A stretch of 5,349 nucleotides of DNA from IMG/VR virus record IMGVR_UViG_2585427776_000008; one strand, given 5' to 3'. A model generated the notes under the pieces. The model saw only the letters and a list, made by a program, of their open reading frames with translations. It was not told the DNA's origin and did no database searches. Position 1 is the first letter of the stretch. Each line of letters begins with the position of its first letter. Shown piece by piece: positions 1 through 5,307 of this stretch. Position numbers and translations under genes: made by a program. Source of the stretch: a virus (lineage: Duplodnaviria; Heunggongvirae; Uroviricota; Caudoviricetes).

Positions 1-732
1 TTTTTTCCACGTATCAAGCGTGATAGCACTCGTCACTTTGCATATGGCATTAAATGCCTCCGTTGATGGTAGTCTTTCACAGCCACGACCACCACAACGC
101 TGGCAGTCTCTGATAACAGGCATACCACGTTTTACCGACTCTTCACGATGAATGGCGACACCACGCCCACGGCAATCCTTACAGGCGGTGGAAACCTCAC
201 CCTTTCCGCCACACTCCGGACAGGCAACTTTTACCACCTCCCTGACTTTTTTCCATTCTTCCCAGTAAGACGGATACACACCTTTCGTACACTTTGCCCA
301 TACCGGCGGCTTACCATCCGGATACTGGACCTTGTTTGTAAAAACTACGCTTTCAATAAATTTTTCCCCATAGCAACAAGGGCACTGCTTTTTACTCGCT
401 GCGCTGCGGGCATAATCCTCAAAAGCGTACGAAGCCATAATGCGCATCACTACCGGTTTTATTTCTGCCGGGAGTTTTCTTAACGCCGCCACGCGATCAC
501 ACCGACTGAGTGCATATTCTGTCAGCAATTCTGTTGCCCGCTCTCTGTCATTCATACTAATGCCCATTTTCCCAAGGAACGCAGAAAACCCCATCTCAGC
601 CCGATTCTGTGTCATGCCCTGCGCGGCCATCACATCAGTGATACTCAGCGCATCTTTCGACGTTGAGGCCGATGCATCAGTCAGGCCGGGGGATTTTGGG
701 GAGTAGTATTTCGGTAAATCTTCCAGTTTCAT
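1..732 (-). CDS. Phage late-gene antitermination protein Q (Q82/QuuQ-like family), C-terminal end truncated by the window edge
   Basis: Hand translation of the minus strand from ATG at 732-730 gives 244 codons with no stop down to position 1 (MKLEDLPKYYSPKSPGLTDASAST...). It contains DnaJ-like CxxCxGxG zinc-finger repeats (CPECGGKG, CKDCRGRG, CQRCGGRG). The start overlaps the rusA stop in an ATGA arrangement. Position immediately downstream of rusA matches lambdoid gene order. Family assignment is from memory, not a search. Confidence 0.75.
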   Translation of the reverse strand, partial: MKLEDLPKYYSPKSPGLTDASASTSKDALSITDVMAAQGMTQNRAEMGFSAFLGKMGISMNDRERATELLTEYALSRCDRVAALRKLPAEIKPVVMRIMASYAFEDYARSAASKKQCPCCYGEKFIESVVFTNKVQYPDGKPPVWAKCTKGVYPSYWEEWKKVREVVKVACPECGGKGEVSTACKDCRGRGVAIHREESVKRGMPVIRDCQRCGGRGCERLPSTEAFNAICKVTSAITLDTWKK

Positions 733-1109
733 TTTTTGACCTGCCCTTCAAGCATTATGGGGTAAATCTTCACCCCCAGACGTCCACCAGATACTGGCTG
801 AGCACGAACGATATTGATTTCATCAAACTGCTCATCGTCCATTAGCAACCCCGCATGCGTCAGCGCATCCAGCGGCGCTTTCAGAATATTGTCCAGGTCA
901 CGGCGGCGCTTATCCGGTGGTTCTGCAATAATTTTTATTGCCAACCTTCCGGACAGGCTTAATTTCAGCCGCTGCTGGCGAACAATAAGCGCCACTGCCC
1001 GGCGATAACGCTCCCCGGCTTTTGATACAAAATATGTGCTGCCACGACGACGCCAGTAAGTGTTCACCGTTGGCGGGTAAGGCAAAACAAATTCTATGCG
1101 TTCAGTCAT
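729..1109 (-). CDS. rusA: Holliday junction resolvase RusA (crossover junction endodeoxyribonuclease)
   Basis: 126-aa ORF with the RusA acidic active-site region (PDKRRRDLDNILKAPLDAL) and overall similarity to K-12 RusA as recalled. Start ATG at 1109 directly abuts the TAA stop of the upstream ORF (TAAATG), with a GGAAAG Shine-Dalgarno about 7 nt upstream. Confidence 0.9.
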   Translation of the reverse strand: MTERIEFVLPYPPTVNTYWRRRGSTYFVSKAGERYRRAVALIVRQQRLKLSLSGRLAIKIIAEPPDKRRRDLDNILKAPLDALTHAGLLMDDEQFDEINIVRAQPVSGGRLGVKIYPIMLEGQVKK

Positions 1110-2165
1110 TTATGCTTTCCACTTCAAAACACCCGAATTTCTCGCGTGCATTAAAAAACGAATCAGCAACAACAGTTGGCTGCCGTGTTTTTCTTCAAAA
1201 TCTTTTACCCCGGCGTGTAGTTCGCTATGGCATTTACGGCACAGCGGAATAACAAACAAATCATCAGCCTTTGTTCCCATCCCTCCCAGTCCATGACCAA
1301 TGATGTGATGCGGATCATCTGCCTGATTGCCACACGTCATGCATTTCTGCGTTTTTACCCAACGCGTGTATACAGGCATCTCTTCCCGTTGTGATTTCTG
1401 GCGCTGGAGATACTGAGCCGGTGACTCCGGATCAACGGCAATGCTGACCACCGTCTTTTCCTGTGGCGGGGTTTGCTGGTGGGGGTGAGGCAGCGGCGCA
1501 AGATTTTTTGTGCGCTGCTTCAGTATGCTGGTGGCGGTCTGCTCTCCCGGTACGATGTCGCTTTCACGGTACATTGAGCGGATTTTTTCCGCACGCAACC
1601 CCAGCGAACGACGTAATACCGCTTCCGGTAGCGCGTCCGCCACCTGATTGCGGACCGCCCACCAGGATAATTCAGCCAGCGATAATTCCCGTTCCTGCGA
1701 GCCATTCATTGCATGGCGTATGACGTCAATCATCCATGCAAACAGGTTTTGGTGAGCAAGTTGCCCGAGTGATTCGGAGGTCTGGTCGCGCAGCTGGTTG
1801 TCGCAGTGCCAGCACAACACCATTGCGCCGGTACCATAACGGTGAATGACGGTTTCACTGTGGTGATAATCGCCGTGTGGCCACTGGCAGGATTTAACAT
1901 GGCGCAGTAACCAGTCAGACAATGCGCCAGCGCCACCAGCAGCACGAATCACTCGTTCGTCGCTGAAAAATGGCAGTAATGATTTATCCTCCGCCAGCGG
2001 CTGGCGAACGGCAGGAACGACCCCGGACGGCAGATTACGCATGCTTTTCGGTTCCGGCTCCACCAGTACCCGGGTATTGTGGAATACCGGCATGGATTCA
2101 CGGCCCGGCTTAACGATCACCAGCCCGAGTTCCGGTACCAGAACAGGTCGAAGTAATACCCGCAC
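1110..2165 (-). CDS. DUF968 family prophage protein (YdfU-like) with Cys/His-rich HNH-like zinc-binding motifs
   Basis: 351-aa ORF beginning MRVLLRPVLVPELGL, which I recall as YdfU-like. It has CWHCDNQ and CMTCGNQ...HHIIGH...CRKCHSELH motifs. The start is GTG at 2165-2163, preceded by a strong GGAGG Shine-Dalgarno 5 nt upstream that lies in the end of the preceding ORF. Confidence 0.8.
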   Translation of the reverse strand: MRVLLRPVLVPELGLVIVKPGRESMPVFHNTRVLVEPEPKSMRNLPSGVVPAVRQPLAEDKSLLPFFSDERVIRAAGGAGALSDWLLRHVKSCQWPHGDYHHSETVIHRYGTGAMVLCWHCDNQLRDQTSESLGQLAHQNLFAWMIDVIRHAMNGSQERELSLAELSWWAVRNQVADALPEAVLRRSLGLRAEKIRSMYRESDIVPGEQTATSILKQRTKNLAPLPHPHQQTPPQEKTVVSIAVDPESPAQYLQRQKSQREEMPVYTRWVKTQKCMTCGNQADDPHHIIGHGLGGMGTKADDLFVIPLCRKCHSELHAGVKDFEEKHGSQLLLLIRFLMHARNSGVLKWKA

Positions 2166-2166
2166 G

Positions 2167-2439
2167 TTACCTCCAGATGCGTTGCTGGAATGTGCGGGAC
2201 GGACGCGGTGGGCGTTCAGAGTAAGGAAGCCTGACGGAGATTATCCAGTGACGATAATCGAGGCTGAGGGCTTTCTTAATCTCGTATCCGCGTCTGCGGT
2301 AGTTATGAATTAGCCATTCGGCCTGTTCTTCAGTACATGGTGGGTGTTGGTACCAGTCGGTTTTAAATGCGTGTGAACGCCGCCCATGCCGGATGGCAAG
2401 GTCGGTATCAGAATTGTGAAATTTGGTTTTGTGCGCCAT
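2167..2439 (-). CDS. Hypothetical small prophage protein (90 aa); positional equivalent of rem in K-12 Qin, identity not confirmed
   Basis: Open frame MAHKTKFHNSDTDLAIRHG... with TAA stop at 2169-2167, one nucleotide before the GTG start of the downstream gene (translational coupling). The Shine-Dalgarno is weak and no recognisable motif was found. A candidate promoter (-10 TACAAT at 2491-2496) sits just upstream. Confidence 0.5.
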   Translation of the reverse strand: MAHKTKFHNSDTDLAIRHGRRSHAFKTDWYQHPPCTEEQAEWLIHNYRRRGYEIKKALSLDYRHWIISVRLPYSERPPRPSRTFQQRIWR

Positions 2440-2507
2440 CTGTTTTCTCTGCTGGCGCAGCAGGTGTCAGGTGTTCAGGCTGACGTGCGAATTGTAAACC
2501 AGAATGC

Positions 2508-2548
2508 CAGAAAAAAACAAACCCCGCCGAACCGGGTTAAGTGCGGGT
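2508..2548 (-). terminator. Putative intrinsic terminator at the 3' end of the hok mRNA
   Basis: On the minus strand, a GC-rich stem (CCCGC...GCGGG) is followed by GUUUGUUUUUUU (plus-strand A-run at 2511-2521), about 60-100 nt downstream of the hok stop. Confidence 0.45.
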
Positions 2549-2558
2549 GCGTTGAGGA
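2543..2558 (-). promoter_or_regulatory. fbi-like 3' element of the hok mRNA, complementary to the mRNA 5' end
   Basis: The mRNA sequence here (UCCUCAACGCACCCGC) is complementary to the predicted 5' end of the hok transcript (GCGGGUGCUUGAGG, plus coordinates 2921-2938), with an 8-bp and a 6-bp helix around a small bulge. This matches the tac/fbi long-range pairing described for hok mRNAs. Confidence 0.4.
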
Positions 2559-2606
2559 TGCCTGACACATCAGAGGTGGCGAGGGATTTCTCCCCCGCCA
2601 GGTCTC

Positions 2607-2762
2607 TTACTCCTCAGGTTCGTAAGCTGTGAAGACAGCGACCTCCGTCTGGCCGGTTCGGAGTCGTACCTCGCAGAGGTCTTTCCTCGTTACCAGTGCC
2701 GTCACTATGACGGTTAAACAGATGACGATCAGGGCGATTAACATCGCCTTTTGCTGCTTCAT
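2607..2762 (-). CDS. hok: Hok/Gef family type I toxin (HokD/RelF-like), 51 aa
   Basis: Translation MKQQKAMLIALIVICLTVIVTALVTRKDLCEVRLRTGQTEVAVFTAYEPEE is near-identical to E. coli HokD (RelF) as recalled. It has a single transmembrane helix and a TAA stop at 2609-2607. Confidence 0.9.
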   Translation of the reverse strand: MKQQKAMLIALIVICLTVIVTALVTRKDLCEVRLRTGQTEVAVFTAYEPEE

Positions 2763-2819
2763 AGCCTGCTTCCCCTTGCCTTTCGGCACGTAAGAGGCTA
2801 ACCTACATTTGTGAGACAT
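2607..2819 (-). CDS. mok: mok-like reading frame (in-frame 19-codon N-terminal extension of hok)
   Basis: ATG at 2819-2817 with a GAGG Shine-Dalgarno 8 nt upstream, same frame and stop as hok. This is the arrangement annotated for chromosomal mokC/hokC. Function is inferred by analogy only. Confidence 0.55.
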   Translation of the reverse strand: MSHKCRLASYVPKGKGKQAMKQQKAMLIALIVICLTVIVTALVTRKDLCEVRLRTGQTEVAVFTAYEPEE

Positions 2820-2824
2820 AGATT

Positions 2825-2900
2825 GGGCCTCAGATTAATGTTAAGCGTCTTGCAGGACGCGAAATGTTAACTGGGGCTTTTCTCTATCTGCCTTTCAGTG
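2825..2900 (+). ncRNA. Candidate Sok-like antisense RNA covering the mok translation initiation region (coordinates approximate)
   Basis: Inferred from hok/sok architecture: the region antisense to the mok Shine-Dalgarno and start. A plus-strand hairpin GCGTCTTGCAGGACGC lies at 2845-2860, followed by a T-rich stretch (GGGGCTTTTCTCTATCTGCCTTTC). No strong sigma70 promoter was identified; the best candidate is TTGCCT-17-TAACCT at 2776-2804. Confidence 0.3.
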
Positions 2901-2920
2901 TTCATGCCTGAGACAGATAG

Positions 2921-2938
2921 CCTCAAGCACCCGCAGCC
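2921..2938 (-). promoter_or_regulatory. tac-like 5' element of the hok mRNA
   Basis: The minus-strand sequence GGCUGCGGGUGCUUGAGG resembles the conserved 5' end of hok mRNAs and is complementary to the 3' element at 2543-2558. Confidence 0.4.
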
Positions 2939-2967
2939 ATTCTACTTAACTCACGTCACCTCGCCAA
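2939..2967 (-). promoter_or_regulatory. Candidate sigma70 promoter for the hok/mok transcript
   Basis: Minus-strand -35 TTGGCG (2967-2962), 17-bp spacer, -10 TAGAAT (2944-2939). The predicted start near 2932 would place the tac-like element at the transcript 5' end. Confidence 0.4.
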
Positions 2968-2999
2968 TATGAAATCAATCAGAAAGGTGATCCATAAAA

Positions 3000-3686
3000 T
3001 CACTCCTTCTCTTCTTTTCCGTAGTGGAGTTGGCCAATTTTGATAAGAGGGCGTCCCTGAGATTTGCGGTGTAGATTGGTATCGCGCAGAGAATACACAC
3101 AGCCACAATATTCCTGCTGATAGAATTTTTCGCGCTTGCTGATTTCAATCATACGGGACGAGCCGCCCTGCTTGCGCCAGTTATAATCCCAGTACACCAT
3201 ACCCGGATAATGCGCAACAGCTCGCCGCCCACACTCGTTAACCTGCTGCATATTTTTCCAGCGTGAAATGCCCAGTGAACTGCTGATCACACTGAAACCA
3301 TTTTCAGCAGCGTACAACGCTGTCCGCTCAAAACGCATGTCAAAACACATGGTACAACGGATCCCCCTCTCAGGCTCCCATTCCATTCCTTTGGCACGTT
3401 CAAACCAGTTGTCGGTGTCGTAATCAGCATCGATAAACGGCACGCCGTGTTGTTCAGCAAAGCGAATATTTTCATCCTTACGAATTAAATACTCTTTCTG
3501 AGGATGAATGTTCGGGTTGTAGAAAAAGATGGTGTAGTCGATTCCCGAGGCCTGAAGCGCCTCCATCACTTCACCGGAACATGGAGCACAGCAAGAGTGC
3601 AGTAGTAGTTTGTTTGCCCCGTTTGGGAGCTCCAATTTAGGCCGTTTGAAATCAGCAATAGTCATAAATATTTTTATTGGGGTCAT
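3000..3686 (-). CDS. queH: QueH-like epoxyqueuosine reductase (DUF208 family), putative prophage cargo gene
   Basis: 228-aa ORF carrying the DUF208/QueH hallmarks as I recall them: [35 protein letters not shown] and [12 protein letters not shown] (the Cys ligand set). There are two in-frame candidate starts (ATG at 3686 and 3665), both with weak Shine-Dalgarno sequences. The protein has N- and C-terminal extensions relative to the recalled core. Confidence 0.8.
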
Positions 3687-3862
3687 GAAAATAGCACAGA
3701 GTGTAGCATCAGAGCAGGGCTATCGGGAATATATGTCTAAATCTGGTAATATCTGGTTTTGACGCAAAGCGGACAACCACGCTGGCTCTACCCTGCGCCA
3801 TGAAAATGTCAATTCACATCTGAACTAATGCTCTTTAATCTAGTAACGTCTAAAATACCTAA

Positions 3863-3878
3863 GGAAGGTGCGAACAAG
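3863..3878 (+). repeat. IS5 left terminal inverted repeat
   Basis: GGAAGGTGCGAACAAG; the flanking 4 bp outside is CTAA (3859-3862). Confidence 0.9.
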
Positions 3879-3885
3879 TTCCTGA

Positions 3886-4911
<1,026 letters not shown>

Positions 4912-5042
4912 AAACCGGAAATAACGCCAGAAATGGTGGAAAAAATAGCCTAAATAGGCTGATTCGATGTGTTTGCGGGAAAAAAATCGGCCCAGATCCG
5001 AGAAATTTTAATCAGCGAGTCAGCTTGGGAAGAAATGACCTG

Positions 5043-5058
5043 CTTATTCGCACCTTCC
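5043..5058 (+). repeat. IS5 right terminal inverted repeat
   Basis: CTTATTCGCACCTTCC (reverse complement GGAAGGTGCGAATAAG); the flanking 4 bp outside is TTAA (5059-5062). Confidence 0.9.
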
Positions 5059-5097
5059 TTAAGTGACAACCCCGCTGCAACGCCCCCTGTTATCAAT

Positions 5098-5155
5098 TTT
5101 CTGGTGACGTTTGGCGGTATCAGTTTTACTCCGTGACTGCTCTGCCGCCCTTTTT
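5098..5155 (+). ncRNA. dicF: DicF small regulatory RNA (Qin prophage sRNA that inhibits ftsZ translation) with its terminator U-tract
   Basis: TTTCTGGTGACGTTTGGCGGTATCAGTTTTACTCCGTGACTGCTCTGCCGCCC followed by TTTTT matches the 53-nt DicF sequence as I recall it. The GGCGG...CCGCC terminator stem is present, and dicB lies about 170 bp downstream, as in the K-12 dicB operon. Confidence 0.8.
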
Positions 5156-5159
5156 AAAG

Positions 5160-5307
5160 TGAATTTTGTGATGCGGTGAATGCGGCTGAGCGCACGCGGA
5201 ACAGTTAAAACCAAAAACAGTGTTATGGGTGGATTCTCTGTATCCGGCGTTAATTGTTAACTGGTTAACGTCACCTGGAAGCACCAGGCACCGCATCACA
5301 AAATTCA
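5160..5307 (+). repeat. Perfect 19-bp inverted repeat (arms 5160-5178 and 5289-5307) enclosing a 110-bp spacer between dicF and dicB
   Basis: Arm 1 is TGAATTTTGTGATGCGGTG; arm 2 is CACCGCATCACAAAATTCA, its exact reverse complement. The spacer contains three GTTAA motifs (5249, 5256, 5264) and a small CCTGG/CCAGG hairpin. Arm 2 ends 18 nt before the dicB ATG. Confidence 0.8.

Follow-up and report, generated by a model that had tools for sequence, protein, structure and literature searches.

The window, that is, the whole 5,349-nucleotide stretch filed as IMG/VR virus record IMGVR_UViG_2585427776_000008, is Escherichia coli DNA, and its positions 1-3862 match many genomes at 99.8-99.9% identity. 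Across the equivalents of this portion, RefSeq genes encode an antiterminator, RusA, a DUF968 protein, a hypothetical protein, HokD and QueH; at the locus considered here, RefSeq names hokD in O104:H4 and many other genomes and marks the hokD coding sequence only. On the minus strand of the window, positions 2511 to 2967 very probably hold a complete hokD/hokW-type member of the hok/mok/sok family of type I toxin-antitoxin systems, with an R1-type mechanism. The locus is part of the nin/Q region of an E. coli prophage that is lambdoid and Qin-like, a context identified by DUF968 together with DicF/dicB (DicF at 5099-5150), and near-identity of the toxin to K-12 HokD, combined with this Qin-like setting and the adjoining DUF968/ydfU, places it in the HokD (RelF) orthologue group. 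An IS5/ISKpn26 element (about 3863-5062) adjoins DicF, and, relative to the O104:H4 prophage, approximately 3.9 kb carrying DUF977, replication and repressor genes is missing through an IS5-linked deletion; the prophage is therefore probably defective and not inducible. At least 80% of the 2440-3000 region is found in 3307 of 5426 complete E. coli genomes. Isolated phages and P1-like plasmids also carry the locus, and a blastn search against plasmids in 'distant' mode returned hokD/hokW-like copies, mostly on non-mobilizable plasmids of about 95 kb.

The toxin is encoded by a 51-codon open reading frame of HokD type (2607-2762, minus strand) with AAGGGGAAG upstream. Its product matches Pfam PF01848 HOK_GEF over profile positions 1-42 of 42 with 79.3 bits, against a cut-off of 22 bits; NCBIfam Hok models match it under their curated cut-offs (49.1 versus 73 bits), and the identical O104:H4 protein is RefSeq HokD WP_000813262.1. 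Within the AAGGGGAAG region, GGGG at 2775-2772 (minus strand) serves as the candidate Shine-Dalgarno (SD) sequence of hok, a form found here and in O104:H4, while most homologs have GGAG. Homologs were obtained by fetching 47 loci of Hok relatives from one-genome-per-species contigs, from which 37 distinct transcripts of Escherichia, Shigella, Kluyvera, Pseudocitrobacter, Citrobacter, Photorhabdus, Pantoea and Erwinia were aligned. The preliminary description of the window, made from its letters alone, had also proposed a mok frame with a Shine-Dalgarno sequence of its own, and one is present: a 70-codon frame on the minus strand (2607-2819, ATG at 2819), in frame with hok and ending at the same stop; the GAGG at 2831-2828 precedes its ATG by 8 nt and is invariant in 37 of 37 homologs. 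An upstream ATG occupies the same alignment column in 36 of the 37; it is in frame with hok in 25 of these and in the +1 frame in 7, and the remaining 4 open short frames of 19 codons. The annotated mokC of K-12 and mokW of 933W follow the same pattern as the mok described here. Since mok is in frame with hok, its translation would yield a Hok protein of 70 amino acids with an N-terminal extension.

Transcription of both frames is predicted to begin at a sigma-70-like promoter on the minus strand (2939-2967), with the -35 element TTGGCG at 2967-2962, a 17-nt spacer and the -10 element TAGAAT at 2944-2939. This is the candidate promoter that had been claimed, and it was the only promoter-like site reported by a consensus scan of 2400-3100. 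The predicted start lies near G2932. Position 1 of the Rfam family RF01794 'sok' falls on the same nucleotide, in a match (2932-2757, minus strand) that covers the full length of the model (1-157) with 120.5 bits and E = 5.5e-28, the gathering score being 59. Despite its name, RF01794 was rejected as evidence for the antisense gene: the model fits the hok-sense strand, and because it runs from GGGUGCUUGA to the hok AUG it describes the leader of the hok mRNA and not the antisense RNA. At the other end, a terminator-like hairpin (2538-2520) and a U-tract (2519-2511) were found on the minus strand by direct folding, as the earlier reading of a terminator-like stem followed by a U-tract had it. 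A terminator consensus scan of 2400-3100 reported no site; the simple scan missed this one because its stem is irregular. Taken together, promoter and terminator/U-tract delimit a predicted full-length mRNA of about 422 nt (2511-2932, minus strand), and transcripts of 423-425 nt fold with z = -6.9 relative to shuffled sequences. Between 2440 and 3000 the window differs from the closest genomes at a single position, G2522 on the mRNA (C on the plus strand), which is U in O104:H4, TOE17 and K-12 and is thus private to the window. With this change the terminator stem is shifted and predicted to be less stable, at -7.7 kcal/mol compared with -10.4 kcal/mol in O104:H4 and -11.8 kcal/mol in K-12. 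The same region overlaps a 59-amino-acid plus-strand frame (2386-2565), annotated by RefSeq as a hypothetical protein, which was considered as an alternative meaning of the sequence; it has no Pfam match, and the RNA elements explain the region.

The central claim of the preliminary description was that the 5' end of this transcript is complementary to a segment of its 3' untranslated region (UTR). The 5' segment GCGGGTGCTTGAGG is indeed found at 2934-2921, although the extension to 2938 was wrong; G2934 and C2933 lie upstream of the likely start, so that the transcribed part is GGGUGCUUGAGG, the translational activator element tac (2921-2932, minus strand), nearly invariant in the 37 homologs. 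Its partner had been placed at 2543-2558 and needs only a small correction, to 2557-2545: here, in the 3' UTR and just upstream of the terminator, lies the fold-back inhibitory element fbi, CCUCAA(C)GCACCC, which forms 12 base pairs with tac and leaves C2551 bulged. The folding of the full-length transcript that had been suggested as a check favours this 5'/3' pairing. The helix is part of the minimum free energy (MFE) structure of the 423-425-nt transcript, and each of its pairs has an ensemble probability of 0.97-1.0.

The view that the match arose by chance and plays no part in how the RNA folds would have in its favour that the helix is predicted and comprises just 12 base pairs with a bulge, but it is effectively refuted, and we give it next to no credence. 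The tac/fbi duplex has an energy of -21.1 kcal/mol, whereas a set of 2000 shuffled 3' UTRs gave -12.4 +/- 2.0 and not one of them was as good. Partners of the 5' end were then sought across homologs with a 13-nt 5' probe against sliding windows, a procedure that replaced RNAduplex with long flanks, which gave over-extended and uninformative duplexes. In 35 of the 37 homologs the homologous 3' UTR site is the best partner anywhere in the transcript, and both exceptions are visibly damaged loci, one a K-12-type hokC whose 3' UTR is cut by IS186 and the other a Shigella copy with a garbled hok reading frame. For one fixed register of the alignment, the share of paired cells is 88%, and it drops to 32-55% once the partner is shifted along. 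The register itself differs among homologs, with a bulge in Escherichia and Kluyvera and none in Photorhabdus and Pantoea, so one structure string cannot fit both, and most of the remaining 'unpaired' cells are artefacts of register. Compensatory changes occur at tac position 4 (U-A in 22, C-G in 11) and position 12 (G-C in 18, A-U in 5). From the shuffles, the ensemble probabilities, the best-partner result and the compensatory changes, it follows that the tac/fbi complementarity is real and far beyond chance.

Besides fbi, tac has two further partners. In the nascent transcript it pairs with a downstream arm at 2904-2914 (minus strand), and the first 32-40 nt are predicted to fold into an 11-bp metastable hairpin of -16.9 kcal/mol. 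Across homologs 96.6% of the cells of this hairpin are paired, and tac position 4 covaries with the arm (U-A in 24, C-G in 12) as it does with fbi. Such 'coupled covariation' was reportedly described as a signature of the hok family by Gultyaev, Franch and Gerdes in 1997. The other partner is the upstream complementary box ucb, or anti-SD, AAGCCCC (2873-2879, minus strand), with which tac pairs once fbi has been removed: the predicted probability of tac/ucb is 0 when fbi is present and 0.8-0.98 when the 3' end lies at 2558-2575. The tac/ucb helix is 99% paired across homologs and invariant, so that covariation neither supports nor opposes it. What ucb does in the full-length RNA is less sharply predicted: the fold in which it is paired to the mok SD has -167.6 kcal/mol and the fold with the hok SD GGGG as its partner -168.1 kcal/mol, almost the same energy, and the predicted accessibility of the mok SD, computed for 2832-2829, changes little between full-length and truncated RNA. 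Because the two partners of ucb are nearly equal and SD accessibility shifts only a little, thermodynamic folding supports the tac switch better than it supports the details of SD masking.

Two other stems complete the mRNA. The downstream complementary box dcb, GCCUC (2794-2798, minus strand; name taken from PMC9841398), is complementary to the mok SD region, with which it makes up the predicted target hairpin of Sok; the GAGGC/GCCUC stem appears in MFE folds and AGCCTCTTAC is invariant across homologs. In the 3' UTR, a stem-loop that had been described as 8 bp at about 2578-2599 is present and somewhat larger, with 10 bp and a GAAA loop at 2600-2577 (minus strand) in MFE folds. Among homologs 96.9% of its cells are paired and both partners have changed at three of the pairs; by analogy with R1 data (PMC9841398) it is presumed to be the protective 3' stem-loop of the processed mRNA.

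Opposite the start of mok lies the predicted gene for the antisense RNA Sok (2811-2881, plus strand), placed by alignment to the annotated sokW of 933W. The antisense RNA had been expected at roughly 65 nt between 2800 and 2900; at the level of sequence a Sok gene does fall within that interval, with a predicted length of about 71 nt, and when the K-12 sokC annotation is transferred instead the 3' end comes to lie at about 2887. The RNA is predicted to fold, at -28.1 kcal/mol, into a 14-nt single-stranded 5' tail, which covers mok codons 1-3, a long hairpin and a terminal UUUU. Its putative promoter (2776-2804, plus strand), placed by alignment to the annotated sokW and sokC, has TTGCCT at 2776-2781 as its -35 element, a 17-nt spacer and TAACCT at 2799-2804 as its -10 element, followed by 6 more nucleotides before the start of Sok. 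The -10 element agrees with the consensus at 3 of 6 positions, and the consensus scan of 2400-3100 did not report this promoter, which at 7 of 12 consensus positions is below its threshold. Both elements occupy conserved positions. Phage 933W has an identical promoter region, and its sokW promoter has been mutated in experiments (PMC8621323).

The locus as a whole thus bears out the reading of a hok/mok/sok-type system, by its Hok/Gef domain, the Rfam leader match, mok with its SD, the tac/fbi pairing, the tac/ucb switch, the metastable hairpin and a Sok gene aligned to sokW and sokC. That it is intact is supported by this complement of elements; the further statement that it is functional is an extrapolation from sequence, and we regard actual physiological activity as reasonably probable, given the full set of elements, the visible signs of purifying and compensatory evolution and a close homolog already tested by experiment.

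One of its closest known relatives is hokW/mokW/sokW of the Stx2 phage 933W, or Sakai prophage Sp5, an experimentally demonstrated type I toxin-antitoxin pair with 92.3% nucleotide identity from promoter to fbi. Both have mok in frame with hok and a lambdoid phage context, their Sok genes agree exactly in promoter region and 5' end, and in both the Sok hairpin carries the same 18-nt extension when compared with hokC. The 71-nt sokW begins 9 nt within mokW. They differ at the C-terminus of the toxin (FTAYEPEE here, FVDYESEK in HokW), in the hok SD (GGGG versus GGAG), downstream of fbi, where the 933W sequence is unrelated and lacks the terminator seen here, and in their position and neighbours within the phage genome, which are QueH and DUF968 in the window. 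HokW arrests growth; sokW transcribed from its native promoter counteracts the toxin, an effect that depends on RNase III and Hfq, the complementarity being 71 nt; and deletion of hokW-sokW halves the release of Sp5 phage after mitomycin C (PMC8621323).

The hokD (relF) gene of K-12 belongs to the Qin prophage, of the same family as that of the window and with ydfU/DUF968 downstream, and it shares with the window, at 98-99% identity, the hok ORF, the hairpin of the 3' UTR, fbi and the terminator; the hok ORFs differ in a single codon (CTC here versus ATC). Upstream, homology extends no further than 17 nt before the hok ATG, the point at which relBE is fused and relE takes over, and promoter, tac, ucb, mok start and sok, all present in the window, are accordingly missing from K-12 hokD. 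The contrast that had been drawn with the degenerate hok loci of K-12 is correct for hokD; for the other K-12 hok loci, the literature names insertion sequences or rearrangement as the cause of inactivation (PMC12214031). The hokC/mokC/sokC (gef) locus of E. coli has the same tac sequence, a mok in frame with hok and sharing its stop, a Sok 5' end 9 nt inside mok and a Hok about 80% identical, whereas it lacks the 18-nt extension of the leader hairpin, and in K-12 IS186 cuts its 3' UTR and removes fbi.

The order of elements is also that of the archetype, hok/sok of plasmid R1, namely tac, metastable arm, ucb, mok SD, dcb, hok, 3' hairpin, fbi and terminator. In R1, mok is in a different frame from hok, whereas mok is in frame here, and Sok is about 64 nt long compared with about 71 nt here. 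The 'distant' blastn search against plasmids gave no IncF hok match, R1 being too diverged, and the comparison was therefore made through the published model, with which the predicted refolding logic agrees (PMC9841398). HokW is 44% identical to R1 Hok (PMC8621323). According to the R1 model, the tac/fbi helix keeps the full-length RNA locked, the mok SD is hidden by ucb, and a metastable hairpin at the 5' end guards against premature translation (PMC9841398).

A scheme for the window can be proposed by carrying the R1 model over to the hokD locus. It builds on the sequence elements, the thermodynamic pairing preferences, the homology to a tested locus and the covariation of tac/fbi, the metastable hairpin and the 3' hairpin; we infer the transcript ends, the 3' processing, the expression of Sok, the toxicity and the biological role. 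A constitutive promoter would produce the mRNA of about 420 nt, and during synthesis tac would be kept in the metastable hairpin. Once the 3' UTR had been transcribed, tac would pair with fbi, leaving ucb free to sequester the mok SD or the GGGG at the hok SD, and the full-length RNA would be neither translated nor bound by Sok. Slow exonucleolytic trimming from the 3' end would strip the terminator and fbi and halt near the conserved 3' UTR hairpin, whereupon tac would switch to ucb, the mok SD would enter the SD/dcb target hairpin, mok would be translated and ribosomes would reach hok. As long as it was made, the unstable 71-nt Sok would pair with the mok start region, and the duplex would be destroyed. 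Were Sok to fall, through loss of the element or through prophage induction as demonstrated for hokW, Hok would be made and the inner membrane depolarised.

It is possible, at roughly one-in-four confidence by our judgement, that the locus is structurally intact and yet physiologically silent, a conserved prophage passenger and not an addiction or lysis module at work, with no killing on loss and no response to transcription arrest. Its prophage lacks the immunity/replication region through the IS5-linked deletion and is probably not inducible, the -10 element of Sok is weak, the hok SD is atypical and the terminator carries a private change. Structurally intact chromosomal hok loci have been reported to lack post-segregational killing (bioRxiv 10.1101/2025.08.07.668861, citing Pedersen and Gerdes). 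Silence is harder to reconcile with the 92%-identical hokW/sokW, which is toxic, is neutralised by sokW and aids phage release (PMC8621323); with the compensatory changes that keep the pairings across genera, which argue for continuing selection; and with the retention of most of the region in 3307 of 5426 complete E. coli genomes. A slightly stronger, still tentative case can be made that the main role is lysis or phage release on induction, as for hokW, or abortive infection directed at other phages, and not stabilisation of the element. The location in the nin/Q region of a lambdoid prophage fits such a role, as do the halved Sp5 release on hokW-sokW deletion and the effect of mitomycin C, which lowered sokW and raised HokW (PMC8621323); with the repressor/replication region absent here, however, release coupled to induction is unlikely, and the sequence favours none of the candidate roles.

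The interpretation we prefer remains a complete locus with an R1-type mechanism. Several observations count against it, namely the weak -10 element of Sok, the weakening of the terminator by G2522 and the GGGG of the hok SD, as well as a canonical closed state of ucb with the mok SD for which ViennaRNA shows no clear preference over ucb with GGGG in the full-length RNA, the small shift in mok SD accessibility, NCBIfam scores below cut-off and the earlier-tested, structurally intact chromosomal hok loci reported to lack post-segregational killing. Some of these peculiarities could have consequences of their own, an idea we consider improbable: in the full-length RNA, ucb may clamp the GGGG of the hok SD in place of the mok SD or by turns with it, its CCCC being, with G2773, a perfect complement of that GGGG; the 70-amino-acid extended Hok may be active or modulating; and G2522 may alter the 3' end and the kinetics of processing.

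The locus is already known and annotated, it is widespread, and the family to which it belongs is a textbook one; the end-to-end pairing of its mRNA, real as it is, is a textbook feature of that family. In that the tac/fbi pairing was read from the letters alone and then confirmed by covariation, it forms a clean positive control. Beyond correct annotation the locus matters little, and the coordinates given here permit mok, sok and the mRNA elements to be added to the existing annotation of the hokD coding sequence. For the family, natural E. coli prophages commonly carry hokD in its complete, ancestral form, of which K-12 retains a remnant fused to relBE.

The type of prophage to which the window belongs can be read from its right-hand end. 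A full-length DicF small RNA lies on the plus strand at 5099-5150, where the Rfam model RF00039 scores 76.7 bits (gathering score 48). It confirms a Qin-like prophage context, and the stretch running to 5349 is 99% identical to its counterpart in the Escherichia coli O104:H4 prophage, the DicF-dicB region. Within the DicF-dicB interval, at 5162-5302 (+), there is also a match to the Rfam STnc100 family (E = 6.8e-6) that, at 38.4 bits, falls below the gathering score of 47.

Immediately to the left of DicF is the right end of an IS5/ISKpn26-family element, spanning about 3863-5062 with its transposase open reading frame (ORF) on the plus strand at 3931-4911. At this junction the window lacks approximately 3.9 kb relative to the O104:H4 prophage, in which the corresponding segment carries DUF977, replication, YdaT and cI/cro-like regulator genes. 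In strain TOE17, the same element interrupts a DUF977 gene and the remaining prophage is intact. Judged from these sequence comparisons, an IS5-associated deletion appears to have removed the immunity and replication region in the window.

Directly upstream of the hok promoter, at 3000-3686 on the minus strand, is a gene for epoxyqueuosine reductase QueH (Pfam PF02677, 221 bits), a tRNA-modification gene carried on a lambdoid prophage. On the other side, downstream of hok, a 90-amino-acid minus-strand ORF at 2167-2439 has no match in Pfam or NCBIfam. RefSeq also annotates a 59-amino-acid hypothetical protein on the plus strand at 2386-2565, overlapping the hok terminator and fbi, the 3' untranslated partner of the mRNA 5' end; a Pfam search with this ORF returned no match, and it is probably not a gene.

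Across 2440-3000, the window differs from the closest genomes only at position 2522, a private substitution (plus-strand C, mRNA G) that affects the hok terminator hairpin in its 3' arm. A second variant, shared with O104:H4, affects the hok Shine-Dalgarno sequence at 2773, which reads AAGGGGAAG in these two and AAGGAGAAG in almost all aligned homologs, including those of Stx phage 933W and K-12. The AAGGGGAAG form has perfect complementarity with the CCCC of ucb, the upstream complementary box.

The pairing of ucb with tac, the mRNA 5' end, is the consensus structure of the Rfam model RF01794, which is named 'sok antitoxin' and matches the hok-sense strand at 2757-2932 (-), beginning at the mRNA 5' end and reaching the hok AUG. 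Because the model covers the hok-sense leader, automated annotation based on it would misplace sok, on the wrong strand and at excessive length.

The UACG motif is recognized by the adenosine deaminase TadA. In hok, the Tyr47 codon UAC is followed by G at 2621-2624 (-), inside an invariant TTACGAA block, and alignment shows this UACG site to be kept in all 37 homologs. Low-level A-to-I editing that recodes Tyr to Cys at the Tyr47-equivalent codon has been described for the hokC, hokD and hokE mRNAs (PMC12214031; bioRxiv 10.1101/2025.08.07.668861).

Genes of the E. coli hokD type, with 93-100% protein identity, are also found in unrelated taxa, where the contigs that carry them are very short, namely in Acinetobacter idrijaensis (L016, 275 nt), Xanthomonas pisi (L020, 431 nt) and a Candidatus Scatousia metagenome-assembled genome (L048); assembly contamination, rather than horizontal transfer, is their most likely source. 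In Kluyvera sp. CHPC 1.2972, positions 1-816 of the fetched locus (L024) contain a relBE-hokD fusion of the K-12 type, with 89% identity over 824 nt, so loss of the hok leader through this rearrangement is not confined to K-12.
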